In this document: piece by piece, positions 305-52,445 of the stretch
How positions within the stretch are numbered: the first letter of the stretch is position 1
Layout: every line of letters starts with the position of its first letter
UHGV virus genome: UHGV-1430452
Reading direction: 5' to 3' (one strand)
DNA length: 64,000 bases
DNA from: a virus
Notes under the pieces: model-generated
What the model was told of the DNA's origin: nothing
Database searches by the model: none
The model's input: only the letters and a program-made list of their open reading frames with translations
Made by a program: the position numbers and the translations under genes

Positions 305-3300
305 TTACTTCACTCCTTTCAAATACTTAGATACTGTCGATGTAGAAACTCCCATCTTCTTAGCAATCTGTTCAAGTGTATAGTTAGATGCAGCCATTGC
401 TTTAGCTCTACTAACTTGTGCACTGCTTAGACTGTTGGTTAGTCTAGGAGTTGCTCGTTCTCTAAGGTTATCGATGTCTGTTGTGTTAAGGATTCTCTTA
501 AGCTGATTCTCACTAACAGCACCAGCTTGTATAGCTTCCCATTCTTTGTCACTGATCTCTATGTTACGATCTCTTCTAGAGATAGAGCCAACCTCTTGTC
601 TATACTTATTCAACGCCTGTTGGCTAAGCTTTCTCAACGGTTCTCCTTTAAGCTCTTCACCATGTTCTTCAAGGTAAGCCTTCTTCTTAGCTGCTATCTC
701 GGAATTAGCTTTTCGTTGAGCAGTTCTTTCTTTAATCTTATTGAGATCTGACTTATCGACTCTCTCCATTAAAGACTTAACCTCATCTCTATACGCAGCC
801 TTAGCACTTGCTGTTGTTTCGATCTTTCCTGTGTTAGCCATAGCTAATCTAGCTTTGTTACCAAGAGCTTTCATCTCATTAGCGTAGTCCGCATAGATAA
901 GTTCCATAGGATGTCTAGCTTTAGATACTAATTTATAAGCATCATCAGTCTCAGCCATCTTAGTACTTTGCTGCATACGGGTTTTAGTACGATATGTAAT
1001 ATCACCAGCGGCATTAGTATAGGTTACTTTCCCAGTGACGGGGTCTTTTTTCTCAATAGGGTTATACCTTTCGTAAGCTGCCTTATCTTTGGGATCATAT
1101 TCAATCTTCTTGCCATCAGCTGTTCGCACGGTAATAAGACCGGTCTTCTTATCTCGTTTTCTATCGACATAATATAGATCGTCGGCCTTCTTCCAAAGCT
1201 TGGCTCCATCTGGTTTGGTGGGGTCATAATCTTTACTACCTGGGATGTTTATTTTATATGAGCCTTGTCTTTTCTCAACTGAATATTGTCCCTTTGATCT
1301 TGATAAAATGGTAGAAGCTCCACCTGATCTTTCATTTCCGTCATCGTCAATACGAACCTGATACTTCTTTTTAAGTGCAGCAATATTGTTATCTATCTCA
1401 CTTTGTTTGTAATCAAGATGATGTTTCTCAGCATCAATAACAACCATGCTATGCTTAACTGCTCTTGCCAATTCTTTTTCATCAGCTCCAGCTAAAGTCA
1501 TATCAGTAATAAGATTGGATACAACACCCATCTGAGTTCCAGTGTTTTTCATGATGGGATATGCTTTTCCATTACGATAATAACGAACATTACCATCTGC
1601 ATCCTTCTTAGCAACACCACCATATTCAACCTTAGGATCAAATCCTTCAAGATCTTCAAGAGGTCGCTTATTAAGAATTTTTACCTTTCCACCTGGATCA
1701 TTGGTAGGAATACACATAACAGTATCGCCATCAAAGTCTGCACCTGAAAGCTGATCAGCAATCTTATGATTAATGCCGACTGCATCGATACTTTGTTTGC
1801 CAATTATTTTATCTCCCAGTGGATTCTTATTGTTAACTGTTAAGATAGGAATTTCAAATCGTCCGCCATGAGGATAACGAATAAGAGCGAGCTTAGTTCC
1901 ACTCTCGTAGTTTGGAGCATATACTTCATTGTCTTTTAAAGAGTTTATTGGAATAATAACGTGGTACTTCTGTCCAGGTAACGCTGCTGCTTTTAAATGT
2001 ACAGCCGCTGCATCGCAGCTATCTGCAAATTTCTCAAGCATATGTTTCTTAATAGTAGGATTAGTAATAGACATATACTCATCAAACTCAGCAAACTTAT
2101 CTTTCTTAGCAAGATCTAACTGTTTCTTAGCTAGAGTCTGTGACTGTTTAGCCAGGAACTGAGATGGTAATGCGTCCTGCCAATCATCCCAATCTCCTTC
2201 ATCGGATCTCTTATTAATGAGACCTAATTTCTTCTTACCGGTCTTAGGATCGTCATACCAATACTGTCCACCCTTGTCAGCATCTTTTATAAGAGAGCCA
2301 AATGGATTGTCTGGATCATCTTTCTTAATATTTTTAAGAACCGTACTTGTTTTATCGCCTAAAGCTGGAGTACCTTTTTTCTTATTCGTATTAAATATGA
2401 CATCTACTCCATCAGGCATGTTGTCAGAATATACTGCCATACCTTTAAGATAATGAGTTCCATCTACAAGAATACGAACCTGTGAATATCGTGAATCACC
2501 GAGATCAAGATCTTTACATCCTCTGCGAAGTTCAATGATACCGTCCTTATCAATACCCTTAAATCCATCAGCACCGACATCGTCTGCATATCGAACCATT
2601 AAACGTTTTGAATCAAGACTTGCAGGATATGTAAACTTCTTCTGGAATGTATCTCCTCCGTCTATTGATTCATAATCGTTAATTGTCTTTACTCTATCGT
2701 AGTCGTAGATTTCTTTATGTGCCGTTCCTGGTTTACAAAGAACTTTCTGGATGGTCTGTTGTCCTTTTGTATTTATCTGAGGAATACCACCAGTATACAC
2801 AGGATAACCTTCTGCTTTCTGTAAGTAATCAAGAGCAGTATTCAATCGTTCTTTGGATATGCCAAGAGATTTTTCAACACCAGCTGTTACATCGATCATA
2901 CCTTTTTGATCAACATGCTCTCGCAGAAAATCTACAGTCTCCATTGCCTGATGCATACGGTCTTCAGACTTAGGATTAAGAAGAGACCTTACTGTGGACT
3001 CTGGAATACCCATTTCTCTACCGATGGCAGTTGCTCCAAGTCCATCTTCTTTTAAAGATTTAGCTCTAGCTACCTGTTGTAATCTTTCTTCATAACCAGC
3101 CCAACTAATCTGCCTTCTATATTCTGTAGTTGTTAAGTCCATGGATTTAGCTATCGCATTATCTCCGGTCCAGGTCTTACCATTATCATCAGTGTAAGTA
3201 AAACCGGCTTTCTTAAGCTCTTTAACTCTTGCGAGGAAATCGGAACCATGTTGGTATCTATCTTTTCCACTTCCATAAGGATACCTACCGCTGCGGCGAG

Positions 3301-3475
3301 GCATACCATAATGCATAAGTTCATCTTCATTCGCGCTGTCTAAGCGATCAGACCAACCAAAATAAGAAAGGATCTCGTCAGCAACGGTGAACTCTTCATC
3401 GCTGTGCTCAAGATCCTCTTCTCCAAATATAGATTCTACAAGTTCGTTCAACGGAGGTTTCTCTAAGAACTCCAT
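305..3475 (-). CDS. large RNA polymerase-like protein (1056 aa): beta-prime-type double-psi beta-barrel motif ADFDGD preceded by IRYPHGGRFEIP; C-terminal HTH
   Basis: ADFDGD hexamer identical to multisubunit RNAP beta-prime NADFDGD; upstream R-x-P-H...F-E-P resembles the beta-prime NRxPTLHR...FEP block; HTH TLEQIAKKMGVSTSTVSKYLKG at C-terminus; start overlaps upstream stop with in-frame GAGGAGG. Confidence 0.85.
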   Translation of the reverse strand: MEFLEKPPLNELVESIFGEEDLEHSDEEFTVADEILSYFGWSDRLDSANEDELMHYGMPRRSGRYPYGSGKDRYQHGSDFLARVKELKKAGFTYTDDNGKTWTGDNAIAKSMDLTTTEYRRQISWAGYEERLQQVARAKSLKEDGLGATAIGREMGIPESTVRSLLNPKSEDRMHQAMETVDFLREHVDQKGMIDVTAGVEKSLGISKERLNTALDYLQKAEGYPVYTGGIPQINTKGQQTIQKVLCKPGTAHKEIYDYDRVKTINDYESIDGGDTFQKKFTYPASLDSKRLMVRYADDVGADGFKGIDKDGIIELRRGCKDLDLGDSRYSQVRILVDGTHYLKGMAVYSDNMPDGVDVIFNTNKKKGTPALGDKTSTVLKNIKKDDPDNPFGSLIKDADKGGQYWYDDPKTGKKKLGLINKRSDEGDWDDWQDALPSQFLAKQSQTLAKKQLDLAKKDKFAEFDEYMSITNPTIKKHMLEKFADSCDAAAVHLKAAALPGQKYHVIIPINSLKDNEVYAPNYESGTKLALIRYPHGGRFEIPILTVNNKNPLGDKIIGKQSIDAVGINHKIADQLSGADFDGDTVMCIPTNDPGGKVKILNKRPLEDLEGFDPKVEYGGVAKKDADGNVRYYRNGKAYPIMKNTGTQMGVVSNLITDMTLAGADEKELARAVKHSMVVIDAEKHHLDYKQSEIDNNIAALKKKYQVRIDDDGNERSGGASTILSRSKGQYSVEKRQGSYKINIPGSKDYDPTKPDGAKLWKKADDLYYVDRKRDKKTGLITVRTADGKKIEYDPKDKAAYERYNPIEKKDPVTGKVTYTNAAGDITYRTKTRMQQSTKMAETDDAYKLVSKARHPMELIYADYANEMKALGNKARLAMANTGKIETTASAKAAYRDEVKSLMERVDKSDLNKIKERTAQRKANSEIAAKKKAYLEEHGEELKGEPLRKLSQQALNKYRQEVGSISRRDRNIEISDKEWEAIQAGAVSENQLKRILNTTDIDNLRERATPRLTNSLSSAQVSRAKAMAASNYTLEQIAKKMGVSTSTVSKYLKGVK

Positions 3476-4119: not shown

Positions 4120-4410
4120 TTATTTGTTAAATGTTTTTCTGAGATCGTCCAGGACTTGGTCCTTGTTCTCAGGAAATATAAATGCTGAGTGTGACATCTC
4201 ATTCATTTTATCTACATAGTAATCCTGATTTGGCTGATGTTTTGCCGTAGCGCTCTTCTTCACTTCTAATGCGCACCATTTATCTTTGTAGAGAACTAAT
4301 AAGTCCGGAACTCCCTGTAAATATGTTGGATCATTTTTCAGGACCATACATCCTGGGAATTCTTTCTTAAGCTCTTTGATAAGTTTTGCTTGAAATTTGT
4401 TCTCTAACAT
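4120..4410 (-). CDS. VRR-NUC domain nuclease
   Basis: GVPDLLVLYKDKWCALEVKK carries the PD...E-V-K VRR-NUC signature. Confidence 0.75.
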   Translation of the reverse strand: MLENKFQAKLIKELKKEFPGCMVLKNDPTYLQGVPDLLVLYKDKWCALEVKKSATAKHQPNQDYYVDKMNEMSHSAFIFPENKDQVLDDLRKTFNK

Positions 4411-4511: not shown

Positions 4512-4530
4512 GCCTATTATAAAGAAAAGA

Positions 4531-4733
4531 GAAAAATAGACTTTTCTCTCATAAAAGGGCAAGAAAATTTCGTGAATAGGGTGTGTACTTTTATATGTAA
4601 ATTTAGATAAGACCGGGAGCCATGAAGGACATCCCGGTACGTTCCAAAAATATAAATAGAAAGAAAATAGACCATCTCTCTATAAAAGGGTCAGAAATTT
4701 TCGTGAATAGGGTGTGTACTTTTTATATGTAAA
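4531..4733. repeat. two copies of a ~72-bp direct repeat (4531..4603 and 4663..4733), each containing a variant promoter-like motif (ctcataaaaggg...ttcgtgaata) and separated by a 7-bp-arm hairpin
   Basis: near-identical strings read directly; hairpin ACCGGGA-N13-TCCCGGT between copies. Confidence 0.8.
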
Positions 4734-4757
4734 TATCAATAAATGAGATCGTATGTA

Positions 4758-6529: not shown

Positions 6530-7027
6530 TTAAATGATATCTTTATGTTCACCTTTAAACCATAAAGAACCATCCTCGAAACCTTCAATCAGTACACAAG
6601 TTCCGACAATATCGGTTTCGTGCTTATTATGTTCCACAACCAAACGATTACCTACTGTTTTCCATGACGATAAAGCTCGTTCGTATTTTACTTTTGTATT
6701 ATACGCAGACACATATCTCTTTTCGTAACCGTCCAATCTCTGTTTTAATTTCTTTACCTCATCACCATCCGGTTTCTCTTTTTCAGTTTGCTCTTTCAAT
6801 CTGTCAAGAGTTTCCGTGATATTGTAAGGTAATTCCTTCAATCTGTTCTTGGAAGTACTCAAGTTTTTTGCTGCTTGCTTATGTAAATAATTCTCAAGCT
6901 TATCGATCTTGTCGATAATGTTCTTTGCGGTATCAATCACGATCCAATTAGAACCAAGTTTTGTACCTAAATAAATAATTTCGTTTTCTTCCTGTTTCTT
7001 TAAAAAGTTGATAAATGTTGTTTTCAT
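6530..7027 (-). CDS. hypothetical protein (165 aa), coiled-coil rich
   Basis: co-directional ORF with motif 34 nt upstream. Confidence 0.7.
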   Translation of the reverse strand: MKTTFINFLKKQEENEIIYLGTKLGSNWIVIDTAKNIIDKIDKLENYLHKQAAKNLSTSKNRLKELPYNITETLDRLKEQTEKEKPDGDEVKKLKQRLDGYEKRYVSAYNTKVKYERALSSWKTVGNRLVVEHNKHETDIVGTCVLIEGFEDGSLWFKGEHKDII

Positions 7028-7060
7028 AAATATACCCCTTTCTTTAAATAAACTATTTTT

Positions 7061-7088
7061 CTATAAAGGGAGATGTTTATTTAGCGAG
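7061..7088 (-). promoter_or_regulatory. conserved promoter-like motif copy
   Basis: ctataaagggagatgtttatttagcgag. Confidence 0.55.
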
Positions 7089-7529
7089 TTAATCCATGTT
7101 CACTAATTCGTGAATTGAACATTTCAATGCTCTCGCCATTTTTATCAGATTACGAGAATTCGGAGTGGCTAGACCGTTTGTGTATTTACTTATCGTAACC
7201 TGAGTGACACCTATCTTTTCAGCTAATCGATCTTGTGTCATAGCTACGTTTCTCATTTTCCGATTTAGATTACGAGCAAATATCTTTCTCCATTCTTCTT
7301 CTGAAATGTCAATTGAATCTTCGTTGCCTGGATCATGAATCAGATAGGCTTGTCTATTAAGAAAATCATAAGCATACTTTTTACCGCCTTTGATCTTTAC
7401 CGTGATCTCTAATTGTGCACTAGGATACCAATCTAACATTTCTTCCGCTAGATTAGGATAATCCTGACAAAATGCTTCATATACGGGTTTCCAATATTTT
7501 TTACCGTCATTCATCTTAAGTCCCTCCAT
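7089..7529 (-). CDS. XRE-family HTH DNA-binding protein (146 aa)
   Basis: C-terminal HTH QDRLAEKIGVTQVTISKYTNG. Confidence 0.75.
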   Translation of the reverse strand: MEGLKMNDGKKYWKPVYEAFCQDYPNLAEEMLDWYPSAQLEITVKIKGGKKYAYDFLNRQAYLIHDPGNEDSIDISEEEWRKIFARNLNRKMRNVAMTQDRLAEKIGVTQVTISKYTNGLATPNSRNLIKMARALKCSIHELVNMD

Positions 7530-7542
7530 TTCTTAAAGATTG

Positions 7543-7971
7543 AATTATGTGCAGACCGAAATTCGTGAAAAATAAAAAAAATACATTTTTAAATTAATAT
7601 ACAACTACTTTATACTTTGGTTATATAACTAAAGTATAAAGTTACCTTACAACAATATATAAAGAAAAAATTATTTTTTACGAATTATGTGCAGACCGAA
7701 ATTCATTTTTACCGTTTTTAGGGCCAAAATGACCGAAAATAGCCAATTTAGCCCCATTTTTGACGAAAAGTGCCGAATTATTAGCAGACCAAAAATAATT
7801 ATTAGCAGACCAAAATTCTATTTTACCATCATTTTCTTATTTATTAGCAGACCAAAAATACCATTTTCCTATTTATTAGCAGACCGAAATTCGGAATTAT
7901 TAGCAGACCAAAAATAGCAAAAACTGAATTATTAGCAGACCAAAAATAATTATTAGCAGACCAAAATTCGG
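7543..7971. repeat. iteron array: 9 copies of a ~20-bp direct repeat (A)ATTATTAGCAGACCAAAA(T), variants ATTATGTGCAGACCGAAATTCG, irregular spacing
   Basis: copies near 7543, 7683, 7776, 7797, 7837, 7871, 7895, 7927, 7949; flanked by HTH and RHH genes. Confidence 0.85.
7607..7642. promoter_or_regulatory. 12-bp-arm perfect palindrome ACTTTATACTTT-N12-AAAGTATAAAGT upstream of the HTH gene; operator-like
   Basis: inverted repeat read directly. Confidence 0.6.
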
Positions 7972-7977
7972 CATATC

Positions 7978-8262
7978 TTACACATAATCGTCCTCATCTA
8001 TGTCGTCTTCATACTCAAATTCATCATTATAATCGTCACTACCAGATCCATATAACTCTTTTAAAGCTTCTTGACGTTTGTTAATACTATCGATAGATGC
8101 TTTATATGTACTGATTCTGATAAACTCCGACATAGACATTCCGCTAAGTCTAGCTGCCCTCTCTATAGACGAATACTCCTCGTCATTGCATTTAGAGAAA
8201 ATAGGTTTTCTTCTCGCTCCAAACTTCAACGGCCTCCCACGTTTCTTTTTAACTTCTTCCAT
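7978..8262 (-). CDS. ribbon-helix-helix (CopG/MobC-like) DNA-binding protein with acidic tail
   Basis: KRGRPLKFGARRKPIFSKCNDEEYSSIERAARLSGMSMSEFIR resembles RHH family; paralogs at 9504 and 12151. Confidence 0.65.
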   Translation of the reverse strand: MEEVKKKRGRPLKFGARRKPIFSKCNDEEYSSIERAARLSGMSMSEFIRISTYKASIDSINKRQEALKELYGSGSDDYNDEFEYEDDIDEDDYV

Positions 8263-8268
8263 AAAATA

Positions 8269-8430
8269 TCAATCCTCCTCGCGAGCACTAGACGAACCAT
8301 AACGATCTAATTCAATATCTACACCCTGCAAATTATCATAATTATGTATGGTAAGATCTGTCGATACCGTACCACCAAGCAATAAATCACCGATATCCTC
8401 AATACTAAGTTTTACAATAATTCTACTCAT
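8269..8430 (-). CDS. small hypothetical protein (53 aa)
   Basis: ORF missed by track; SD AGGAGG upstream; stop TGA embedded in junction GAGGAGGATTGATATTTT-ATG. Confidence 0.5.
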   Translation of the reverse strand: MSRIIVKLSIEDIGDLLLGGTVSTDLTIHNYDNLQGVDIELDRYGSSSAREED

Positions 8431-9221: not shown

Positions 9222-9482
9222 TTATCTCACATCAACGTTGCATCCAAAATTAATCAGATAATCGGTAGTACAACCCAACACATGAGACATTCTAGCGATA
9301 ACATCTATTCTAGGGGTACGTTTACATCTCATATAATTAGACATAGCCGACTCAGATATACCGATTAATTTAGCCAATTCTTTTTGATTAATGCCGCATA
9401 AGTCCATACGGTAATTAAGCTTTTCAACGAAGCGTTTTCGCCATTCAATTTCACTAATAGATTTTATAGGAGTCATTTCCAT
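9222..9482 (-). CDS. XRE/Cro-like HTH protein (86 aa)
   Basis: HTH QKELAKLIGISESAMSNYMRCKR. Confidence 0.7.
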   Translation of the reverse strand: MEMTPIKSISEIEWRKRFVEKLNYRMDLCGINQKELAKLIGISESAMSNYMRCKRTPRIDVIARMSHVLGCTTDYLINFGCNVDVR

Positions 9483-9503
9483 AAAAATATCAATCCTCCT
9501 TAC

Positions 9504-9674
9504 TTACTTCTCTTCTTGGTACATTCTCTCTAAAGCAGTTCTAAATACATCAGCAGCACTCATACCTGTTGACTTACGAACCTTCTCTAAAATATCTAAT
9601 TCTTTCCTATTAACACGAACTAGATATCTTGTATCTCTAGGATCTGCTATCGGTTTTCTACCTCTCTTCGCCAT
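9504..9674 (-). CDS. small RHH-type protein (56 aa), paralog of 12151..12354
   Basis: translation MAKRGRKPIADPRD...TGMSAADVFRTALERMY; missed by track (<60 aa). Confidence 0.6.
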   Translation of the reverse strand: MAKRGRKPIADPRDTRYLVRVNRKELDILEKVRKSTGMSAADVFRTALERMYQEEK

Positions 9675-9771
9675 ACATATCGCCTCCCTTCTATGACAGA
9701 TACCATTAATACGAAAAACAAAAGAAGAGCCTCAACTAAATATCAATCTAGTCAAAGCTCTCCCACATCAA

Positions 9772-9843
9772 TTAATCTTTAAGATAACCAACTTTATATA
9801 AGAATCTTCCTACAACTGCCCAAAACTTCTGTCTGAGTGTCAT
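9772..9843 (-). CDS. possible micro-ORF (23 aa, hydrophobic)
   Basis: AGGAGGG SD 6 nt upstream; promoter-like motif 32 nt upstream. Confidence 0.3.
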   Translation of the reverse strand: MTLRQKFWAVVGRFLYKVGYLKD

Positions 9844-9874
9844 ATAGATCCCTCCTTTCTATTTGGTTTCTTTT

Positions 9875-9902
9875 CATAATAGGCGTTGTTAATATCACGA
9901 AA
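9875..9902 (-). promoter_or_regulatory. conserved promoter-like motif copy
   Basis: cataataggcgttgttaatatcacgaa. Confidence 0.5.
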
Positions 9903-9928
9903 GAAAAAGAGAGAAGAAGTATATCTCA

Positions 9929-10052
9929 GCTACACGTTTCTCTGCATCCATTTAAAGACACATTCACTGGTCAGTTCCAGTCCCACTAATATACTTTGAT
10001 GCTACACGTTTCTCCATACATAAGTATGTTCACTGGTCAGTTCCAGTCCCAC
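9929..10052. repeat. tandem direct repeat (2 units, period ~72 bp): GCTACACGTTTCTC ... TTCACTGGTCAGTTCCAGTCCCAC
   Basis: both blocks recur exactly; each has the hairpin ACTGG-N6-CCAGT; lies between two promoter-like motifs. Confidence 0.8.
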
Positions 10053-10072
10053 ATCAACTTTTATTCTTCTCT

Positions 10073-10100
10073 CATAATATAAAATGTATTTTTCGCGAAT
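10073..10100 (-). promoter_or_regulatory. conserved promoter-like motif copy, directly after a terminator-like hairpin
   Basis: cataatataaaatgtatttttcgcgaa. Confidence 0.5.
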
Positions 10101-10134
10101 AAAAAGAAGAGGCTGTAAAAGCCCCTTACTTGTT

Positions 10135-21524: not shown

Positions 21525-21998
21525 TTAAATATAGTCCAATATGTTTCCATCCACATTGAAGTCTAATAATGCCGTATTCTTATAACCATTGATAAAATCG
21601 AAATTACATTCATTCATTAAACCAAAATCTACGAAATTGTCTCCAATAGGATTCTCCTCGTCATAAACCCAGCCAACAACTGCTCCTGCTTTTGTTCTCG
21701 GAATGCCTAACGTATCGTAGACATCATTCAGAAATAAATGTCCTCTTGATCTCAGCAAAACATTACAATATTTCTGCTGATCTTTCAAAAAGTTCATATT
21801 ATACTCTGGATCTTTAATCCACCCAATACAGCTATCATCGAAAAACCTAGCATATTGACTAAAGTTTTCGGTTTTGTCAACCCTGTTTCCTGGATACTCT
21901 TCTTCTGATTTCAGATTGAATAATTTCTTTAATTCCTCATCATCAATTTCAATAGTTACATTAATCTTCATAATTATTCTCCTTTCAAATATAAACAT
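21525..21998 (-). CDS. hypothetical protein (157 aa) sharing a ~110-aa domain with the C-terminus of 44029..44967
   Basis: FFDDSCIGWIKDPEYNMNFLKDQQKY...GDNFVDFG...LLDFNVDGNIL aligns by eye with 44029 C-terminus. Confidence 0.7.
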   Translation of the reverse strand: MFIFERRIIMKINVTIEIDDEELKKLFNLKSEEEYPGNRVDKTENFSQYARFFDDSCIGWIKDPEYNMNFLKDQQKYCNVLLRSRGHLFLNDVYDTLGIPRTKAGAVVGWVYDEENPIGDNFVDFGLMNECNFDFINGYKNTALLDFNVDGNILDYI

Positions 21999-22136: not shown

Positions 22137-23423
22137 TTACCCATCCCATTTACACCACCGCCTTTCATTAAATTTTCGCTTTTCATGCAGAGCTCTGGAT
22201 ATTGCTAGGTCAATACCACTCCTACTTTTTAGATGATAGTAATATAAATCTATGAATGGAGAATTAAGTCTATCGATCCTACCCTTTGCCTGGAGTAATG
22301 TCTTGTATGAATATGTTTGCGAATAAAATACGATACAGTTTGTTTTAATGCAATTGAAACCCTCGGCTCCTGCTGAATAATTTACCAGATAAATCCACTT
22401 CTCGCTTTCTGGTATAGCATCATGCTGGTGTCCGTTATATTCTGCAATAACCACATCTTCTCCATAATATAGATTCTTCAAGATATCCAGTTCGTAGTCG
22501 AATGAATAGAACACAATCATTCTTGGATGTTGTTCAAATATCTCTAATAGTTTTATCTGGCGTGATTCATCTGAATTAACGATTCTACGTAGAACATAGC
22601 AAAGCCCAGAAGCTTGTTGGATAGGTTCTTGTTTAAAAGGATCAAAACGAGTTCTAATAGCTTGCTTGTATTTATGGATGTCGTAAGTAGCCGAAATATC
22701 AATGTCATGAGGTACCGTATGTCTCTCGAAATCCATATCAATAAGAATCCGATCTCTTAAACGAATCAATCTCGTCTCATTACGATAACCTTCAACACTA
22801 GGATACTTTGTCCAACGAGAATATATAATGTGCTCTTGCCTGAATTCCGTTCTATTACGAAAGAATCCATTAGCCACAAATACCGTTTCGTAATCTGACC
22901 AATTATCACCTGGACTAGCTGATAGTATGATCCATTCGTTAAATTTAGCTATCTTTAAAAAAGCTTTACACCATGCGCCTTTACCAGTTAGCTTATCTTC
23001 GTCAAATATAAATACAGCATCTCGAACATCTGCATATTTCTTTATGCATTGCCAACTATCGATAAATATTTTGTTCCCATATCTAGTCTTTTTAGTATCT
23101 GGATCAGGATATAAAAGAAACGGCATCAATTCTTCTTCCCATTCAAGATCATTTTTTTTCTTTGCTGTGCTGATAATGTATAAATCTGGTGGATTAGGTT
23201 TCATTGGTTTGTACTCTTTATTACCTATGTATCCTCCGTTTTTAGAGAAATACCAATACAAAGCAGTTCTAGATTTCCCAGAACCTGTGCCACCGTTAAG
23301 AATGCAACCGCTGAACATACGATCTATAGCCTGCTGTTGATGTGGATAGAGAAAATCCGTTTTGGTTTGAGTTTTGTTGTAAGAAATAGTATGTCGATCT
23401 TTATAGCTCACTTCCAAAATCAC
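22137..23423 (-). CDS. SF2 helicase (DEAD/DEAH-like NTPase)
   Basis: motif I GTGSGKS, motif II IFDEDK, motif III SAS, motif VI QAKGRIDR. Confidence 0.75.
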   Translation of the reverse strand: MILEVSYKDRHTISYNKTQTKTDFLYPHQQQAIDRMFSGCILNGGTGSGKSRTALYWYFSKNGGYIGNKEYKPMKPNPPDLYIISTAKKKNDLEWEEELMPFLLYPDPDTKKTRYGNKIFIDSWQCIKKYADVRDAVFIFDEDKLTGKGAWCKAFLKIAKFNEWIILSASPGDNWSDYETVFVANGFFRNRTEFRQEHIIYSRWTKYPSVEGYRNETRLIRLRDRILIDMDFERHTVPHDIDISATYDIHKYKQAIRTRFDPFKQEPIQQASGLCYVLRRIVNSDESRQIKLLEIFEQHPRMIVFYSFDYELDILKNLYYGEDVVIAEYNGHQHDAIPESEKWIYLVNYSAGAEGFNCIKTNCIVFYSQTYSYKTLLQAKGRIDRLNSPFIDLYYYHLKSRSGIDLAISRALHEKRKFNERRWCKWDG

Positions 23424-25966: not shown

Positions 25967-27535
25967 CTATTTAGCCAAGCCCCTTTCGTTTAGTGCATCC
26001 TCAACTGCGGAATATCGATCTGAGTTAAGTTGCTCTAATAAGCACTCTAGCGGATCGGTGTTATTACTAAGCACCATATTGGTAATAATCGGACTAAATC
26101 CACTTACTAAAGCAACTCCTAGATCGTTCTCTTTTACTGGGATGGTTCCTGTTCTGCTACAAATGTTCCAGAATATCAATCTAGGAAGTTTATAGCCGTA
26201 CTGAGAGTAACGATCTGATATCGTATTAAACAGTGTTTTACTCGGTCTGATATTGCTCCATCTTGAACCTCCTTCGCAACTAGCACAGCTATCAAATTCC
26301 ATATCTGATAAGATAAGTATGTTTTTAGGAATGTCGTTCTGTGACATGTTATTGTTGATTGCTGTTTTGAGAATAAGTTCAAATACAGCTTCGATGTTTG
26401 TGTTAGCCACCTCGTTGTATCTCCTGGCAATTTCGATCTTTTCTCTCAAAGATTCTCCGTTACTAAGATCTACTAAACGAGGATTCATGCTGAATGTAAT
26501 ATATTTGTCTCTGAATTCACCAGAACTTCTTTCAGAAAAATATATTGCAAGAGCATTGGCTACCTCTAAAGCTGTTACACTTGTTCCGCCGACAGGACAG
26601 TCCATACTACCCGATCCGTCCGCAACGCAAATTGTGTTACCGTCTCCGTTTACATAATCGGGAAGTGCTTTCCACAATTCTTCAAGTGTAATGTCATCTT
26701 TACCTTTGAGTTTATTCCCGTACCAAAATTCACCCCGATCAAAGTATTTATGTACAATATCATGCGGGAATAGTACACCAGCATTGATTTTCGTCTCGCC
26801 TTTCTGCAAACTCGCTAAGTAACTACTTCTCCTTTCCTCATCGTTCTTCATAAACGCATTACCATATATAATATTGGCTCTTGATGGAACCGCAGAATAA
26901 TCAATCTTTGACCATTCTTTCTTACACATACTAACTTCCACAACTTTTAAATATGCACGAAGATCCGAAAGCATTTTACGATAGGATTTCTCGTTAATAA
27001 ATAACTTCTGAATCATAAGACGTGCTAGTCGTTTTGTCTCTTTAGACGAAGTGTTTGCAGACGGCATCCATTTAGCTAATAAAGAAATAGGCTCTCCTAG
27101 AGATCTCTTCCTTATATCACTTGTCAACTGTGTAGATACAATTGATACAACGTAGTCTGAAACGTCAGTGTCTAATAAACACCATAAATCATCCCATCTA
27201 CCGTATTCCGGAACCAACGGAATGATTGCCTTTGATATATCGGCATGTTTTTCGGATAGATACTTAAGACAATATCTGAATAATCTTCTTTCTCCGAGAC
27301 CTTCTCGTACATCTCTGGCATAGAACAACCACTTGATAGCAAGCTGTTTGTTTTCGTAGAATGTCTTTACAAACTTGTCTACGATTTCTCCCTCGTCCAT
27401 ATTTCGCATGGATGTTACTGAAAAGTTGATGTCAAGAAGTTCTTTACCAGTAGTACGGTAACCAACTGCTCCATTTTCAGTAAGGCTTGTGTTGAATTCA
27501 TCATTGATTGTTTCTTTCAGATTGTTCATAAACAT
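25967..27535 (-). CDS. vWA-domain protein with MIDAS motif (522 aa); possibly TROVE/Ro60-like or DUF2828-type
   Basis: ICVADGSGSM is a DxSxS MIDAS motif; helical N-terminal region; family assignment tentative. Confidence 0.7.
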   Translation of the reverse strand: MFMNNLKETINDEFNTSLTENGAVGYRTTGKELLDINFSVTSMRNMDEGEIVDKFVKTFYENKQLAIKWLFYARDVREGLGERRLFRYCLKYLSEKHADISKAIIPLVPEYGRWDDLWCLLDTDVSDYVVSIVSTQLTSDIRKRSLGEPISLLAKWMPSANTSSKETKRLARLMIQKLFINEKSYRKMLSDLRAYLKVVEVSMCKKEWSKIDYSAVPSRANIIYGNAFMKNDEERRSSYLASLQKGETKINAGVLFPHDIVHKYFDRGEFWYGNKLKGKDDITLEELWKALPDYVNGDGNTICVADGSGSMDCPVGGTSVTALEVANALAIYFSERSSGEFRDKYITFSMNPRLVDLSNGESLREKIEIARRYNEVANTNIEAVFELILKTAINNNMSQNDIPKNILILSDMEFDSCASCEGGSRWSNIRPSKTLFNTISDRYSQYGYKLPRLIFWNICSRTGTIPVKENDLGVALVSGFSPIITNMVLSNNTDPLECLLEQLNSDRYSAVEDALNERGLAK

Positions 27536-37310: not shown

Positions 37311-37601
37311 CTATCGTAAAGATTTTGGGACAAGGCTTTTGATAATCTTTTTCTGATGCTCGTCCAGATCGTGATATAGAGTGAAACCCGTTGCCCCATT
37401 ATACTCATCGCCAAACTGTTTGTAGTACATAGATTGTTTCCATAACTCCGGATACTCTTTTTTGTACTTTGCGAGTTCTTTTGCTTTCTTGTCATACTGT
37501 TTATCCGAAATTATATTATTATCTAACTCGTAATAAATATATGAATGAAGTATGATATATCTTTGCAAGTAATCTATGTATTCGAGGGTTGTTAGTTCCA
37601 T
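37311..37601 (-). CDS. hypothetical protein (96 aa)
   Basis: start overlaps replicase stop; preferred over overlapping ORF 37136..37495. Confidence 0.6.
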   Translation of the reverse strand: MELTTLEYIDYLQRYIILHSYIYYELDNNIISDKQYDKKAKELAKYKKEYPELWKQSMYYKQFGDEYNGATGFTLYHDLDEHQKKIIKSLVPKSLR

Positions 37602-40600
37602 GGCAGCTCTACATCTTCATCATCGAATGGAATTTCCTCAGGAGATCCTTCCGGTATGTTCATGAAGTCTGGTAAATGAGAATCTCTAAAAGGAGGTTCA
37701 TGCCGATCTGAAGCATCCCAAGGCGGAGTACCAACATATGGATCGTCTGATATGAACCACTCAGCGTCTCCGTATTGACCAATAGTTTCAAGAGCATCAT
37801 CCACAAGCTTTCGATAATATGAACGATCAATATTTTCTTCATTTCCCGGAGACATCATTAACTCGGATTCAAGCCAACGGAAACCAGTTGTTCCTGTAGC
37901 TGCATAATATTTACCGTTCTGTTCTCGCATCAATAGTCCTCCACCCTTTCCAGGCTTAACCGGACAAAATTGCCCAACTTTACCTACGAAATGATAGTCA
38001 TGACCTTCAGCTATTAAATCGTTTAATCTTCGACACTCACTTTCGAAAGTTGTGTCCGATAACTTACCTTTCCTGTACTTATCTTCAAGTTTGGATAGTT
38101 CTTTTTCATACTCGGATACATCTGGAAGTTTTTCGTTCATATCCAAATATAAAGCAGATTTTACTGAGAATGCTTCGCACATATCTTTCAACTCAATTGG
38201 TTCTTTACTGAACAGTGTTTTAAATACATACGGAACTGCAAACTGTTTTCCAGTAGCTGTCCATTCTCCGGCATTCTTTCCATCTTTAAACCTAGCCACG
38301 TACACAGCATCATTTACTAAACAGAATTTTTCAAAGTTAGCCTCTGTTTCAAATGTATATCCGTATTCTTTACCGAATTTGGTTACGAAATCAATAATAT
38401 CAGGAGTAGCATCGGGTATCTTTATGGAATCTGTCTTGATATGACAAACAGTAAATCCTCGTTTCTGAACTTCTCTTTTCAATAATGTCATGAAGAGAGC
38501 TCCTCTTTTGGCAACAATGTTATCCTTATTTCTAGGATCTCTAAATTCATTTACGAAGCCAGCTGATGTCAAACCATAAATGGAATTGATAACAATCTTA
38601 AGTGCCTGCGCTAAATCAGCAGCCTGTTCTTCATTTAAGTATGGTTTCAACGCTCCACCTAATAATTGTCCAGCTGTTTCAAAGTCTTTATGCTTAATTG
38701 CAACACGAGCTTTTACAATATCCTCAAACCGTTTTGTATATTCTGGTCCAAATAGACATTCGAATATAATACTGTGAGGATGCTGAGAAGCAATGTCTCC
38801 ATCCCATACATTACCGTAATGCCCAGGTTCAGAGTAAACCCGACCGCCTTCTCCAATGGCTTCGCCTAAATATGTTGATTTACCAAACTCAAAAGTATAG
38901 CCTTTAAAGAATGGAAGAATGCTATAACCTTCTGGAAGCTTTTCGCCAGGAACGTAAGATCGATATAATGGAAGACCCTCAGAATCAAATACTCTGAAAT
39001 CATAATCATCTCCGAATTTAATTCTATATTCATCATAACGATCTGAGCTAACCGGTTCCGCCAAGTATCTATAGTTGAATACATTCTGCGGTTTTTTATT
39101 ATTTCCAAATATAATTCTTTTAGAAAGAGTATTTGTCGTATCATTAACTGTAACGTTTGTAATATCATGTAAGAGTTTTACAAGATCAACCTGAATCTGT
39201 CTAGCAACAAAGTCTGCTTTTCTTGCATTGAATACAGCTTCCGTCGCAATGACATCATTATCGCAATACTCAGCAACCTTTGCCCATAATTCTTCTGGAA
39301 CTGGTTGATCCCAAGGAAGACCAAGCTCTTGATGATGAATACCCAGTTCAATCTCCCATTTCTTTAAACTCTGTTTCACAGTTGACATATCATATACATC
39401 AATGTAACCAAGATTATATGCCTCACCAAACATGCCATTATCACGGCTTCCCTTTGGAGCATTAATAATTCTTTGAGATAACTTATATATTTCCTCATTT
39501 GTGTATCCCATAAGTCTAGCATAAATGATATGTCTGTCGTATTTACGTCCATTAAAATCAACAAGTTTAAACTTTAGAAGATTTTCTATTTCTGCTGGTG
39601 TAGGATTAATTAATCTAACTACTGTTTTTCCTTCTCCAGCAAACTTATAGTTTACCAAAAATAAATTTGGGAATACCTCACAATCATAGAATACAAGATC
39701 GTCAGTATCACCCTCATTACTTGTCTCTGAAGCCTCTTCACTCTTAAACGCCATCTGATTAACTAACTTCAAACACTCATCAGCCTGGTTACTACTACTC
39801 GCCGCCAAAGCAAATACAGCATTTTTCATATCAGACACATCATATCCAATACCACTCTCATAAGCCTCATCCAAAAGTTTCTTAATCATTTGAATACTTG
39901 GAGCTGTGTTACCCATAATTTCTTTATTCAGATGTTTCTTAAGAACGGATCTCAAATATTTCTCATTCTTAATACCATCAAAGTTAATCACATTTTTCAC
40001 CTCTTTCAACGGAAGACCTGAGCTAATTGTACGAATAACAAGATTGACACACTTAGTAAGTTTTCTTCTAAGAGATGTTTTACCGGTAAATACCTTAATC
40101 TCGATATCCTCATCAAATATACGACTTAATTCACTCACATCACCGTTATAAATATAATGAAGATGAATACCTCCACCACTTTTGCTTAACTCAGCATATG
40201 TTGGAGGCCATTTACTAGCTGCTTCAAGATTCTTCTCGAAACATTTATTACCATTCTCGTCCTTAATATCAAAGTCAATAACTACATGATTTTCAGGGAC
40301 CTTGACGTAATGAAGTTTTGATGTGTCAAGTTCTGATAGGGTAGTTGAAACTTCATCCCATGGCTTCGTCGGAGTTTCTTTTGAAGTAGCATATTGAGCT
40401 GGACAATCAGAACATTCTTTATCAAAAATAGACTCCTGTTCTTCAAATATAAGCCAGCTCTCAGTTTTCTCATCTCCAATAGGTTTCTCTGCTTTAACCT
40501 TTTTCTTCCCACCAATAGAGTCTTCGAAAATATCAGTCTTAAAACCGTCGTAATAACTCAGCAGCTTACTTCCATCTTCTTTCTCCACCTTCTCATCAAA

Positions 40601-41818
40601 TTCCAAAAAATAGTTTCTCAACTCGTCTTTGAATTTTGTCTTAGAAAATGGATACGGCACTTTTGCTTCCTCACAGTAGTTTTTATACATCTCCCATGCT
40701 GCTTTTAGCGTAGTACCATCTTCTTTCTTGAAGACACTGAATGAATCACATACGAAGTTATAAAAGTCATTAGAAGCCATAAGCATGTCCTTCGGAGCGT
40801 AAGTATCGTAATACTCTGGATCTTCTTTAAAGACTTGTAAACAATGATATGCGATTGCTCCCAACTCAAAATCAACCTGTTTGGTCAATCTACGATATTC
40901 TCGAATCGGTATCTTGTTTCCAGTAGGACGAACGTCAATCAAACGCCTTAGTAAACCAGACTTAGCATCAGTGATCTTAACAGGTGTGTTTGTACCCATA
41001 AATAAAAAACATTTGAATCTTGTTTCATATTGTCCTTTAAATTTTTCATTCATGGTCATTATCTCGTGTGAAATCACCGAGTTTAAGCGCGTATTATCTT
41101 CGATTTTTGATAAATCACCATCATGTTGTATCGCTACAAGAGGGTTATTCTTAAACGGTTCCAGAGCGAAAACATTATTCGGATTACCCAAAGCTTTTGC
41201 GTCAAAAGAACAACAATATCCTTCAAATAATTTCTCGATAATATTTATGATAGTTGATTTACCAGTACCACCAGCTCCGTAAAGCACCAGGAACTTTTGA
41301 AGTATTTTTGATTCCCCAGATACAACGGAGCCGATAGCCCATTCTATTTTACGTCGTTCTTCTTCGGAATATAGAGTACCGATGAGTTTATCCCATGCAG
41401 AAATATCGCCAGGTTCGAGAGGATACGGGAGTCTCTTGCTTGCGAAATTCTCTCTGCTTAATTCTGTGTTTGAAAATATAAGTTCATCATCGAGTACAGC
41501 AAAGTTATCACGCATCTGTTTCTGACAATATTTATGGAACTTATCGATTGAGCCACTGTCAGCATCCCACATATACTTAATTACAGGAGTACCTTCAAGA
41601 CGTCCTTCATTTTCAGCGACATATCTATCAAGTTCTCTATCTACAAGACGGGTTACATCGTCTTCATCTGTACTCCACATCTTTCGATCTTCATCCCAGA
41701 TAGCGTAAAAGTCCCTACCTCGAATCATGAGATCTTTAGATTTCAACATTTTGAACTTAGGAGAAACATCAACACTGCTTTTATTCGTCTTCGTTGATAC
41801 TGTCATGAAGTCCAACAT
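37592..41818 (-). CDS. multidomain replicase (1408 aa): SF3 helicase-type NTPase + primase-polymerase (AEP) domain + family B DNA polymerase with 3'-5' exonuclease
   Basis: Walker A VLYGAGGTGKST and motif C FMGTNTP; AEP motifs VVIDFDIKD and GGGIHLHY; exonuclease FYDCEVF and YCDNDVIATEAVF; PolB motif A DIASQHPHS, motif B KIVINSIYG, motif C HIKTDS. Confidence 0.9.
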   Translation of the reverse strand: MLDFMTVSTKTNKSSVDVSPKFKMLKSKDLMIRGRDFYAIWDEDRKMWSTDEDDVTRLVDRELDRYVAENEGRLEGTPVIKYMWDADSGSIDKFHKYCQKQMRDNFAVLDDELIFSNTELSRENFASKRLPYPLEPGDISAWDKLIGTLYSEEERRKIEWAIGSVVSGESKILQKFLVLYGAGGTGKSTIINIIEKLFEGYCCSFDAKALGNPNNVFALEPFKNNPLVAIQHDGDLSKIEDNTRLNSVISHEIMTMNEKFKGQYETRFKCFLFMGTNTPVKITDAKSGLLRRLIDVRPTGNKIPIREYRRLTKQVDFELGAIAYHCLQVFKEDPEYYDTYAPKDMLMASNDFYNFVCDSFSVFKKEDGTTLKAAWEMYKNYCEEAKVPYPFSKTKFKDELRNYFLEFDEKVEKEDGSKLLSYYDGFKTDIFEDSIGGKKKVKAEKPIGDEKTESWLIFEEQESIFDKECSDCPAQYATSKETPTKPWDEVSTTLSELDTSKLHYVKVPENHVVIDFDIKDENGNKCFEKNLEAASKWPPTYAELSKSGGGIHLHYIYNGDVSELSRIFDEDIEIKVFTGKTSLRRKLTKCVNLVIRTISSGLPLKEVKNVINFDGIKNEKYLRSVLKKHLNKEIMGNTAPSIQMIKKLLDEAYESGIGYDVSDMKNAVFALAASSSNQADECLKLVNQMAFKSEEASETSNEGDTDDLVFYDCEVFPNLFLVNYKFAGEGKTVVRLINPTPAEIENLLKFKLVDFNGRKYDRHIIYARLMGYTNEEIYKLSQRIINAPKGSRDNGMFGEAYNLGYIDVYDMSTVKQSLKKWEIELGIHHQELGLPWDQPVPEELWAKVAEYCDNDVIATEAVFNARKADFVARQIQVDLVKLLHDITNVTVNDTTNTLSKRIIFGNNKKPQNVFNYRYLAEPVSSDRYDEYRIKFGDDYDFRVFDSEGLPLYRSYVPGEKLPEGYSILPFFKGYTFEFGKSTYLGEAIGEGGRVYSEPGHYGNVWDGDIASQHPHSIIFECLFGPEYTKRFEDIVKARVAIKHKDFETAGQLLGGALKPYLNEEQAADLAQALKIVINSIYGLTSAGFVNEFRDPRNKDNIVAKRGALFMTLLKREVQKRGFTVCHIKTDSIKIPDATPDIIDFVTKFGKEYGYTFETEANFEKFCLVNDAVYVARFKDGKNAGEWTATGKQFAVPYVFKTLFSKEPIELKDMCEAFSVKSALYLDMNEKLPDVSEYEKELSKLEDKYRKGKLSDTTFESECRRLNDLIAEGHDYHFVGKVGQFCPVKPGKGGGLLMREQNGKYYAATGTTGFRWLESELMMSPGNEENIDRSYYRKLVDDALETIGQYGDAEWFISDDPYVGTPPWDASDRHEPPFRDSHLPDFMNIPEGSPEEIPFDDEDVELPWN

Positions 41819-44028: not shown

Positions 44029-44967
44029 TCAAATCATGTTGAGAATATCCCCATCCACATTGAAATCAAGAAGAATAGTTCTCTCATAACCGTTCACGAA
44101 GTTACGATTTGCCTCGTTGTAAGTGTTATAGATTCCGAAATCTACGAAATTATCACCTACTGGATGTTTCTCGTCATAAATCCATCCAACAATCTGACCT
44201 GCCTGTGTACGCGGGATTCCGAGCATATCATATACTTCATTCAGGAACAGATGACCTTTCGTTTTCAACATGTCATTTGCATAACGCTGCTGATCTTTAA
44301 GGAACATTAGATTGAATTCAGGATCTTTAGTCCATCCTGTACATCCATCATCGAAGAATTTAGCATAATCGCTGTAACTGTCGAGAGTTGCTACATTTGC
44401 TGTTTTCTTAACAGTAGTTTCTGTACCATCTTCATTTACAACAGTCTCTTCGATTTCTTTTGCTTTGATGTTGTACTTCAGTTCTTTATCAAGCTCTTCA
44501 CCAAATCTCTCAATAACACGACCACGATATTCCTTGAAGCCTTTGTCAATAGTTGCATAAGCGGCTGCAAGTGCTAAGTTACGTTTACGAAGAATATGAT
44601 GACCACTAAGAATAGCAGCGATAGAAACTGTTCCAAGGATTACTGCTGGAGCATAAAGTTTTGCTACCTTTACGGCTGTTTGAGTATACATGATAGTTAA
44701 ATCTTTCTTACCATCTTCTTCTGTGTACTCTTTACCTTCTGGAACCATATCTGGATTTTCCATAAATTCATGAATTTTCTCGATTTTTTCTTTTGGCTCA
44801 GCGAGCACCTCATCGAGTTTAGTAGTTGCTTTACATGCCATTACAGCAGAGCCAACTACACCAACAATACCTGCGCCAACCAAGATTTCAGGGCTATGCT
44901 TTTTAAATTTAAAACCTACACGATGGAGGCTTCTAGTTACTGTGTTCATAATTTCTAATTTTGCCAT
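44029..44967 (-). CDS. two-TM-anchored modular protein (312 aa), paralog family A (N-terminal domain shared with 47042 and 49330; C-terminal domain shared with 21525)
   Basis: N-terminal ...PEILVGAGIVGVVGSAVMACKAT... and C-terminal FFDDGCTGWTKDPEFNLMFLKDQQRY blocks. Confidence 0.75.
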   Translation of the reverse strand: MAKLEIMNTVTRSLHRVGFKFKKHSPEILVGAGIVGVVGSAVMACKATTKLDEVLAEPKEKIEKIHEFMENPDMVPEGKEYTEEDGKKDLTIMYTQTAVKVAKLYAPAVILGTVSIAAILSGHHILRKRNLALAAAYATIDKGFKEYRGRVIERFGEELDKELKYNIKAKEIEETVVNEDGTETTVKKTANVATLDSYSDYAKFFDDGCTGWTKDPEFNLMFLKDQQRYANDMLKTKGHLFLNEVYDMLGIPRTQAGQIVGWIYDEKHPVGDNFVDFGIYNTYNEANRNFVNGYERTILLDFNVDGDILNMI

Positions 44968-47957: not shown

Positions 47958-48029
47958 AGAAACAGTGTAGGACTCGAACCCACAACCTACAGATATAAGT
48001 CTGTTGCTCTACCAATTGAGCTAACTGTT
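47958..48029 (-). tRNA. tRNA with atypical anticodon loop, probable anticodon TAT (Ile)
   Basis: acceptor AAACAGT/ACTGTTT, D-arm GCTC-AATTGGTA-GAGC, T-loop TTCGAGT; anticodon stem ACAG/CTGT with loop containing CTTATAT (6 or 8 nt by hand). Confidence 0.6.
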
Positions 48030-48034
48030 TCTTC

Positions 48035-49140: not shown

Positions 49141-49349
49141 GTGTAATGGATATGCTCATTGTTTAATTCGTCGAGATGTTTAATAAAATCTAAATATCTT
49201 TTATTTCGTCTATTCTCCACAAAGTTTATAACTAACCAAGCAATCCCTACGATAGGCAAGCCAACGAATACTAATAGAAATAGTAAGCATGTAATCATAG
49301 AAACAAGCGTATTCATAAATCTTCTCCTTTCAATACTCTTCGTAATCAA
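49134..49349 (-). CDS. small membrane protein (71 aa)
   Basis: two hydrophobic segments; track start may overextend into the motif. Confidence 0.55.
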   Translation of the reverse strand: MITKSIERRRFMNTLVSMITCLLFLLVFVGLPIVGIAWLVINFVENRRNKRYLDFIKHLDELNNEHIHYTR

Positions 49350-50648: not shown

Positions 50649-50675
50649 CATAATAGGTGATGTAATTTTCGCGAA
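50649..50675 (-). promoter_or_regulatory. conserved promoter-like motif copy (consensus match)
   Basis: cataataggtgatgtaattttcgcgaa. Confidence 0.55.
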
Positions 50676-50702
50676 TAGAAAAAGAAAATGCCTAGTTTTT
50701 AA

Positions 50703-50966: not shown

Positions 50967-51001
50967 ATAAATTCCTCCTTATTCGATTTCATTGTTTTTC
51001 T

Positions 51002-51254: not shown

Positions 51255-51256
51255 TT

Positions 51257-52350: not shown

Positions 52351-52445
52351 ATTACTATTATCCTTTCTTTAACTTTAGTTATATAACTTTTGTTTAAACT
52401 CTCGCGTTAGGAAATATAAAAGAAGAAAAAAAAAGAAAAGACTAT

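Follow-up and report, generated by a model that had tools for sequence, protein, structure and literature searches.

We examined a 64,000-nucleotide stretch of the virus genome UHGV-1430452 (hereafter the window), which corresponds, in reverse complement, to the final 64 kb of the 96.5-kb human-gut metagenome contig ERZ27333792:k113_23120 and whose minus strand carries nearly all genes from 300 to 55,500. Within it, a 430-bp spacer separates a gene encoding a ribbon-helix-helix (RHH) protein of 94 amino acids (aa), RHH94, from a gene encoding a helix-turn-helix (HTH) protein, HTH146, and is filled with direct repeats (iterons), an AT-rich segment and a dyad symmetry. Followed in the direction of transcription, the locus consists of RHH94, seven iterons, a block of A/T tracts, one iteron, the AT-rich segment with the dyad, one iteron, a GGAGG ribosome-binding site (RBS) and HTH146 (Table 1). 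An initial annotation of this DNA had placed the repeats between an HTH and an RHH gene, and both genes were confirmed, but it overlooked that both lie on the minus strand; thus, the RHH gene is upstream of the array, and the array falls within the HTH operon's leader or promoter region. The central result presented here is that the core of the iterons changes together with a β-strand of RHH94 from one relative of the locus to another, which points to RHH94 as the protein that binds them.

Table 1. Coordinates of the repeat locus and of other features of the window
Feature	Position	Strand	Remarks
RHH94, 94 aa	7978..8262	minus	Pfam NikA-like
Array of seven direct 23-bp iterons	7775..7969	minus	copies at 7775-7797, 7796-7818, 7838-7860, 7870-7892, 7894-7916, 7926-7948, 7947-7969
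Decayed half-iterons and phased A/T tracts (CTTTTCGTCAAAAATGGGGCTAAATTGGCTATTTTCGGTCATTTTGGCCCTAAAAACGG)	7705..7774	minus	70 bp; read directly
Distal bracketing iteron GAATTTCGGTCTGCACATAATTC	7682..7704	minus	93 bp from last array iteron
AT-rich segment between bracketing iterons	7565..7681		117 bp
36-bp dyad ACTTTATACTTT(A/G)GTTATATAAC(C/T)AAAGTATAAAGT	7607..7642		centre 7624/7625
Proximal bracketing iteron	7542..7564	minus	140 bp from distal one, ~15 nt upstream of GGAGG RBS of HTH gene
HTH146/141	7089..7514 or 7529	minus	HTH_3; start most likely 7514
1056-aa protein, last large gene of operon	305..3475	minus	phrog_4291, E=0, 1140 bits
Six cassettes of hairpin, T-run and TTCGCGAAAATTACATCACCTATTATGAGAG	9868-9908, 10066-10106, 50642-50682, 50995-51035, 51221-51261, 51534-51574	minus
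Helicase	22137-23423
Primase-helicase-DNA polymerase fusion	37592-41818		phrog_4210
Second dyad copy GAGAGTTTAAACAAAAGTTATATAACTAAAGTTAAAG	52354..52412	minus	directly upstream of RBS of gene 51991-52350, without iterons
CI-like double-HTH protein	56053-56649	plus
Large serine recombinase/integrase	56726-58312	plus

A repeat finder returned nine copies of a 23-nt unit, all in one orientation and confined to 7542-7969. This bears out the nine direct repeats of ~20 bp that had been reported for this spacer and is far beyond chance: the motif TTAGCAGACCRAAA has 7 matches against 0.06 expected, a number reached by none of 100 shuffles, and TTATNNGCAGACC occurs exactly at all nine iterons and nowhere else in the window, where ~0.8 matches are expected when up to one mismatch is allowed. 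No second iteron-like cluster was detected when the whole 64 kb was scanned for repeats. The array iterons read (G/T)A(A/T)TTT(T/C)GGTCTGCTAATAA(A/T)T on the minus strand. Two subtypes had been recognized previously and two do exist, but they divide differently: the core is GGTCTGCTAATAA in the seven array iterons and GGTCTGCACATAA in the two iterons on either side of the AT-rich segment. The spacing, which had been called irregular, proved to be quantised, with start-to-start steps of 21, 32, 24, 32, 42 and 21 bp in the array, then 93 and then 140 bp, and most of these distances are whole numbers of helical turns. A 44-nt unit occurs twice in the array, at 7775-7818 and at 7926-7969, with 100% identity between the copies.

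Loci of the same layout (~15, designated here by L numbers) were collected from human-gut metagenomes by exact-protein look-ups and one metagenome scan, and the succession of RHH gene, iterons, dyad, iteron and HTH gene is kept in all of these ~15 loci. The number of iterons varies from 4 to 15 (3+1 in L055-L060, 12+3 in L042). An alignment of the spacers of the window, L029 and L031 puts the iterons in register, the internal steps of 21, 24, 32 and 42 bp recur among the relatives, and the 93-bp step is kept in L029, L038, L041, L044 and L054. The two bracketing iterons are 136-142 bp apart in the close clade, 144-146 bp in a distant clade, where the identity of the HTH protein falls to 46%, and 130 bp in L042. 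In all relatives the proximal iteron lies 10-35 nt before the RBS; the distant relatives have their 3+1 iterons in a 240-bp spacer, where the last site abuts the RBS. Single iterons may also be turned round: the proximal iteron of L058 (~1458-1478) is exactly inverted compared with that of L055/L056 while its surroundings are unchanged, and L042 contains two iterons of reversed orientation (2730-2751 and 2956-2977) in collinear sequence, behaviour that suits a binding site more than a directional signal.

Shortened versions of the locus are seen in three contigs. L052 (1329-1500), whose RHH and HTH proteins are the same as those of the window, has a spacer of ~170 bp in which the array is reduced from seven to two iterons and the whole AT-rich and dyad segment is missing, exactly from one bracketing iteron to the other; this reflects either genuine recombination or an artefact of repeat collapse. 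L027 lacks 7819-7925, and L040, with a truncated array, has the appearance of a recombinant. Searches of other collections were negative or uninformative: INPHARED has no DNA match to 7000-8400, IMG/VR contains no RHH94 relatives (the exact iteron motif gave single chance matches only, and HTH146 generic HTH matches only), scans of GTDB genomes found no relatives and one dyad match, in a metagenome-assembled genome of Bacteroidia, and a tblastn search with RHH94 against the 72,556 plasmids of PLSDB gave no match.

The iteron core varies between the relatives, and the copies within one relative change jointly, with two partial exceptions (the window and L040/41). We compared the core with RHH residues 21-25, which belong to the predicted β-strand, across ~12 relatives and found that at least seven strand types pair with distinct cores. 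IFSKC or VFSKC goes with GGTCTGCTAATAA (window, L031 and L040/41), IFAKC with a core that is mostly GGTCTGCACATAA (L038), MVSSC with GGTATGCA(T/C)A(A/T)AA (L045), VVFRC with GGTATGACAATAA in all nine copies (L029) and FQLKM with AGGGCTGGACGAAAA (L042, for which the iteron was also given as GGGCTGGACG). VVFSC or IVFSC (L047/48 and L049) is found with a core of the same GGTATGCA type as that of L045, and V22 and S24 are common to these strands and MVSSC. In the distant clade, QLNVRV is paired with TGTATAGCA (L055-59) and RIDIRV with TGTACGGCA (L060). If residues 21, 23 and 25 face the protein core, residues 20, 22 and 24 should point outward, and the changes of the iterons track these three residues and not the downstream HTH protein.

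The most direct comparison is offered by L055-59 and L060, which have identical HTH domains and different RHH strands (RQLNVRV and RRIDIRV), and in which all four iterons differ, including the one adjacent to the RBS (TGTATAGCA and TGTACGGCA). Since strand and core covary even in lineages with identical HTH domains, the iterons follow the RHH protein and not the HTH protein, and we infer from this covariation that RHH94 almost certainly binds them, as the initial annotation had proposed for the adjacent RHH protein. HTH146 was considered as an alternative binder because of the window and L029. These two sequences are 98-100% identical from ~7790 down to 6000, apart from local dips that include both bracketing iteron cores and a few codons of the HTH motif, and upstream of 7790, in the RHH gene and the array, only 50-65% identical. 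The clustering of HTH-motif changes between them suggested HTH146, but this candidate was rejected because L044 and L049 share the HTH motif and differ in their iterons, as do L055-59 and L060 with their identical HTH domains. On the other hand, the bracketing iterons of the window and of L040/41 are of another subtype than those of the array, which leaves unproven that one protein binds all sites and counts against the simplest form of our interpretation. A reading of the spacer as RNA was also discarded: its folding energy as a whole is low (z = -5.6), which is probably an effect of the repeats, Rfam has no match in the repeat region, and the covariation with the RHH strand points to duplex DNA.

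The ribbon-helix-helix fold of RHH94 was found by three approaches. Pfam gives NikA-like as the best family (35.3 bits against a cut-off of 27, 1.3e-8), followed by weaker matches to RHH_1 and TacA1; a PDB profile search matches RHH proteins of the TacA, KacA and NikA types; and the AlphaFold 2 model has residues 1-26 extended, helices at 27-40 and 44-71 (the second of which is long) and a disordered tail at 75-94. The protein thus comprises an N-terminal KKKRGRP, the β-strand at residues 19-26 (KPIFSKCN), two helices and an acidic, Tyr-rich tail. The KKRGRP motif, which looks like an AT-hook, is nearly invariant in the alignment of RHH94 proteins, and position 25 is an invariant Cys. A second pair in which an RHH gene is followed by an HTH gene lies at 9222-9674 (RHH56, starting with KRGRKP, and HTH86). 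In the 460-bp spacer before this pair (9675-10134), a 24-nt unit occurs twice at a spacing of 66 bp and a 14-nt unit twice at a spacing of 72 bp, and the spacer is ~66 bp shorter in L025 than in L026 according to the coordinates of the called genes.

The segment enclosed by the two bracketing iterons is exceptional in composition. The 120 bp at 7569-7688 are the most AT-rich of the window (85.8% A+T), and 7580-7679 is the least stable 100 bp in the 64 kb (-101.3 kcal/mol against a window mean of -125.5, standard deviation 5.3, z ~4.6); the second least stable segment has -106.2 kcal/mol per 100 bp. The palindrome ACTTTATACTTT-N12-AAAGTATAAAGT noted earlier in this segment is present, and its N12 is nearly palindromic as well, which makes it a dyad of 36 bp with one mismatched pair. 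Its centre is the midpoint between the bracketing iterons (centred at 7693 and 7553), and its core, TAGTTATATAAC, is kept in nearly all relatives independently of the iteron type. A profile of the dyad region (nhmmer) has only two matches in the window, at 7596-7653 and at the second copy (E=1.5e-11). Because the second copy stands in front of another gene without any iterons, the dyad is an element separate from them, and it is a candidate operator or promoter core.

Two further observations concern the dyads. The second copy is preceded by a tRNA-like remnant (52354-52540, minus strand) with the acceptor stem GGAATAG/CTATTCC, the T-arm GTGGGTTCGAATCCCGC and a CCA-like end, where neither ARAGORN nor Rfam calls a tRNA. 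In the dyad of L053 (60-96), the mismatch G…T mirrors the A…C of the window, each being one transition away from the perfect A…T palindrome of most relatives; the L053 contig begins with a Nextera adapter/transposase end (1-40, …AGATGTGTATAAGAGACAG).

The A/T-tract block between the array and the distal bracketing iteron probably forms intrinsically bent DNA. It is kept in L029, L038, L041, L044 and L049, and a different segment stands in its place in L031 (~1865-1925), L047 (~1955-2005) and L048 (~1985-2035), with a strong RBS (AAGGAGGTGA) and a mini-open reading frame of 8 codons that starts GTG CGT TTT TCG (V/M-R-F-S...). Similar pieces occur in Faecalibacterium phage FP_oengus, in which an 870-bp non-coding gap upstream of an operon of a cas4-nuclease and an RNA polymerase contains several TTTGGCCAAAAA-type palindromic repeats (26900-27090, corresponding to L061 5300-5490) that resemble the T-tract-GGCC-A-tract pieces of the block.

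HTH146 consists of a confidently modelled N-terminal alpha/beta domain (two helices and four strands) and a C-terminal HTH domain resembling Xre and P22 C2, whose recognition helix is almost invariant across 26 homologues. As this helix and the dyad are both conserved, we would guess that HTH146 is a candidate binder of the dyad rather than of the iterons. It is the first gene of an operon that continues on the same strand with two small genes, two HNH endonucleases, a tRNA-Met, a 96-aa gene (4120-4410), a DUF2800 nuclease and a protein of 1056 aa. The 96-aa product may be read as VRR-NUC-like from its sequence, and Pfam has no match to it. Between the tRNA-Met and the first HNH endonuclease gene, a direct duplication of ~131 bp is present within 4518-4742 (4551-4610 and 4682-4742, 86-93% identical). 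The family of the 1056-aa protein, phrog_4291, is annotated as RNA-dependent RNA polymerase, and its homologue in FP_oengus as 'putative RNA polymerase'; PDB contains no sequence relative. This putative RNA polymerase is the likely payload under the control of the locus. The terminase of FP_oengus comes ~5 kb after the polymerase gene, which implies that the operon sits just before the structural genes.

Upstream of the array, no predicted terminator separates RHH94 from the iterons, and transcription therefore probably continues into them. The six cassettes listed in Table 1, each composed of a GC-rich hairpin, a T-run and TTCGCGAAAATTACATCACCTATTATGAGAG and each preceding a gene, look like terminator-plus-promoter units in which a palindromic TTCGCGAA box takes the place of a normal -35 element. 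Two of them lie upstream of RHH56, and hence RHH56 to RHH94 appear to form a single operon that has start signals of its own.

The mechanism we tentatively favour, at somewhat less than an even chance, is that RHH94 builds a nucleoprotein loop or roadblock that gates the operon of HTH146, the nucleases and the putative RNA polymerase. The 430-bp spacer would then be a dedicated assembly site for the AT-hook-like RHH94 encoded immediately upstream and made from the upstream operon. RHH dimers would read the variable core of each 23-bp iteron through strand residues 20, 22 and 24, and the invariant KRGRP arm would probably sit in the A/T-rich iteron flanks. RHH94 would fill the seven phased sites, which are spaced by 2, 3 or 4 helical turns, and would also occupy the two bracketing sites ~140 bp apart that enclose the AT-rich segment with its central dyad. 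The resulting wrapped or looped complex, with one site ~15 nt before the RBS, could gate the transcription entering the next operon, both read-through and initiation at a putative promoter in the dyad. HTH146, the two small genes, the HNH endonucleases, the tRNA, the VRR-NUC-like and DUF2800 nucleases and the putative RNA polymerase would all come under this gate, whose most likely effect is to repress or delay them. HTH146 itself would probably act on the dyad, present again at 52.4 kb. Given that iteron core and RHH strand diversify together, each lineage may possess a private lock and key, as is the case for immunity and incompatibility determinants.

Several observations weigh against this mechanism. 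The iterons bracket the dyad, and the proximal one precedes the RBS closely, but a sigma-70 scan found nothing convincing in the AT-rich segment, so that the gated site must itself be deduced. Nine to fifteen sites are many for a simple operator. The assignment of the RNA polymerase comes from a PHROG label and the annotation of another phage. In addition, the bracketed DNA, being the least stable of the window, would equally fit a replication origin.

Such an origin is the alternative that deserves most attention, and it was one of the two functions first suggested for the repeats. The iterons would load RHH94 as an initiator or origin-specificity factor, which would melt the bracketed AT-rich segment and recruit the primase-helicase-polymerase, and the array and the bent block would aid melting or control copy number, as at the origins of R6K, P1, lambda and SaPI. 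Well-known iteron origins (R6K gamma ori with pi, P1 oriR-incA with RepA, lambda ori with O, and SaPI ori with Rep) combine phased direct repeats of 17-23 bp with an AT-rich unwinding region and bent DNA; binder-iteron specificity diversifies from one relative to another, and the downstream gene has its promoter embedded among the sites. The window resembles them in its phased repeats, which lie beside and around the easily melted segment, in the A-tract block between array and AT-rich region, and in the joint diversification of binder and iterons known from Rep-iteron and O-ori pairs. Moreover, this is the sole iteron-like cluster in 64 kb that also hold replication genes, and the iteron number varies between strains. 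However, the binder would be a 94-aa RHH protein that is not encoded by the downstream gene, and not a Rep of the winged-helix type, an O-type initiator or a helicase. Neither of the adjacent proteins (RHH and Xre-type HTH) belongs to a known family of initiators. The DnaA box TTATNCACA has no match in the window against 3.7 expected, although such boxes are common rather than universal at origins. GC skew, recommended earlier as a check for an origin, was computed for the 64-kb window and showed no interpretable step at 7.6 kb, nor did the skew at four-fold sites. The replication genes are 15-30 kb away, with the primase-helicase-polymerase gene at 30 kb. The 3+1-iteron relatives with their last site at the RBS look regulatory, and so does the recurrence of the dyad before another gene without iterons; L052 does without the whole AT-rich segment, though this may be an assembly collapse. 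We therefore consider an origin possible but rather doubtful, and the same holds for its boldest version, in which an AT-hook RHH protein would be a new kind of phage origin-specificity factor, with private iterons, a melting region and a primase-helicase-polymerase recruited through the acidic tail.

The other function first suggested was a partition centromere of a phage-plasmid, at which RHH94 would serve as an adaptor of the ParR, ParG or omega type on a parC-like array and couple the DNA to a segregation motor. Centromeres of types Ib and II, as in ParR/parC of R1 and pSK41 and ParG/parH of TP228, are characterized by an RHH protein together with direct repeats in an array, and the acidic tail of RHH94 could be a partner-binding peptide. 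The parC repeats of R1 flank a promoter core, and their binder autoregulates. Among phages, Bacillus phage B83 has a ParM, an RHH protein and iterons (PMC6669507). The adaptor and the array are thus present in the window, but the partner nucleoside triphosphatase (NTPase) is missing from it: the search for ParA and ParM that had been recommended found no ParA, ParM or TubZ family match among its open reading frames of ~200 aa or more and no deviant Walker A motif (KGGxGK[ST]), with Walker A confined to the helicase, the polymerase fusion and a 194-aa open reading frame. The gene upstream of the RHH gene varies between relatives and is never an NTPase, and the array lies between the RHH gene and an unrelated HTH operon. 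A plasmid-like lifestyle is made less likely by the large serine integrase and the CI-like repressor, by the lack of any RHH94 match in plasmids and by one relative that is found in the middle of a 244-kb contig, and we regard partition as very unlikely. A packaging (pac) site read by a small terminase-like RHH protein, or an origin of transfer (oriT) of the relaxosome type bound by a NikA-like RHH protein, appears extremely unlikely. The NikA-like Pfam match, the fact that pac sites and oriTs are likewise protein-specific and diversifying, and the ends of several metagenome contigs inside the repeat region would suit such a role. On the other hand, no relaxase gene was found when all open reading frames >250 aa were scanned, the gene content is phage-like, and the terminase, as far as FP_oengus can be used as a guide, would be ~7 kb beyond the repeats. 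Repeats and palindromes are places where contigs are expected to break, and the start points of the ~94-kb contigs vary. Neither role explains the fixed site just upstream of the RBS of the HTH gene, and no partner gene is nearby.

Two further readings arose from the assemblies and were set aside. Physical ends or hairpin telomeres at the dyad centre were suggested by contigs that end at 7616 and 7623 or start at ~7618; no protelomerase was seen, other contigs read through the site, and the differing start points of the ~94-kb contigs also speak against such ends. A prophage-host junction at 7654 was suggested by two low-coverage contigs, L024 (from 7481 onward) and L025 (from 3802 onward), in which the phage sequence gives way, within the S3 gene, to a bacterial operon of the ribosomal proteins S19, L22 and S3. 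The two parts meet in a short AT-rich stretch that can also be read as the S3 peptide EYIKKKL, so that a chimera of assembly is more probable here than an attachment site.

Returning to the gating mechanism, a close parallel is the omega protein of pSM19035/inc18, with which the RHH94 case shares many repeat sites, a small RHH dimer with a flexible N-terminal arm and a flexible orientation of sites. At promoters, omega binds direct or inverted repeats, 7-10 in number, in a cooperative manner. Its occupancy switches promoters on or off (PMC4627068). The omega heptads are contiguous 7-bp units at three promoters that double as centromere for the ParA protein delta, whereas the window has 23-bp units 2-4 helical turns apart at a single locus, two sites bracketing 140 bp and no ParA partner in the 64 kb, and RHH94 carries the AT-hook-like KRGRP arm and the acidic tail. 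In the gal repressosome, GalR at OE and OI, with HU at the apex, brackets the promoter by two operators at about -60/-80 and +55/+60; the bracketing iterons of the window, with the dyad exactly midway as a third element, are arranged similarly, with putative positions upstream and downstream of a start. The differences are the fold of the binder, the extra array of seven sites and the 140-bp length of the putative loop. Control of a phage RNA polymerase operon has a precedent in SPbeta, where a repressor site is found upstream of the operon containing yonP-yonO (PMC10516654; PMC5467207). The corresponding motif, SPBRE, is a 15-bp sequence dispersed over ~10 promoters and bound by the recombinase-like MrpR (PMC10516654). 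The motif of the window is instead clustered at one locus (7542-7969) and tracks an RHH protein; the analogy to SPBRE and MrpR was therefore rejected on account of the dispersed versus confined sites.

With regard to the phage as a whole, the contigs related to the window are 93.7-96.5 kb long and start at different points. The CI-like double-HTH protein and the large serine recombinase indicate a temperate, probably integrative phage of ~94 kb, uncultured and from the human gut. Paralogues of DUF6353/phrog_2152 occur as three full copies and one partial copy (44029-44967, 47042-47869, 49330-50106 and 21525-21998). A tRNA gene at 47958-48031 (minus strand) has 62 bits in Rfam and is reported by ARAGORN as 'tRNA-???' with the anticodon printed as 'ta' and no amino-acid identity; its anticodon loop may be unusual.

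It is well known that RHH proteins act on repeat arrays. What has apparently not been described is the combination found here, namely an AT-hook-like RHH protein, 4-15 phased sites of 23 bp, a conserved bracket of ~140 bp round a dyad, a position before a putative polymerase operon and a series of matched specificities. An uncultured family of ~94-kb gut phages thereby gains a defined control locus for which the binder and its contact residues can be predicted and nature supplies at least eight matched pairs of protein and site. These pairs offer a test set for a recognition code of ribbon-helix-helix proteins and could supply orthogonal protein-operator pairs. That sites and protein turn over in concert points to selection for private specificity outside the classical repressor switch, and the step subject to it would be either entry into polymerase and late gene expression or the initiation of replication. 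If RHH94 were an origin factor, lineage-specific replication (incompatibility) types would be set by three β-strand residues. In a weaker form, the locus would be a second, late-stage immunity determinant that isolates the polymerase operon of each lineage from co-resident relatives. Either step would tell how related temperate phages in one host avoid cross-talk.

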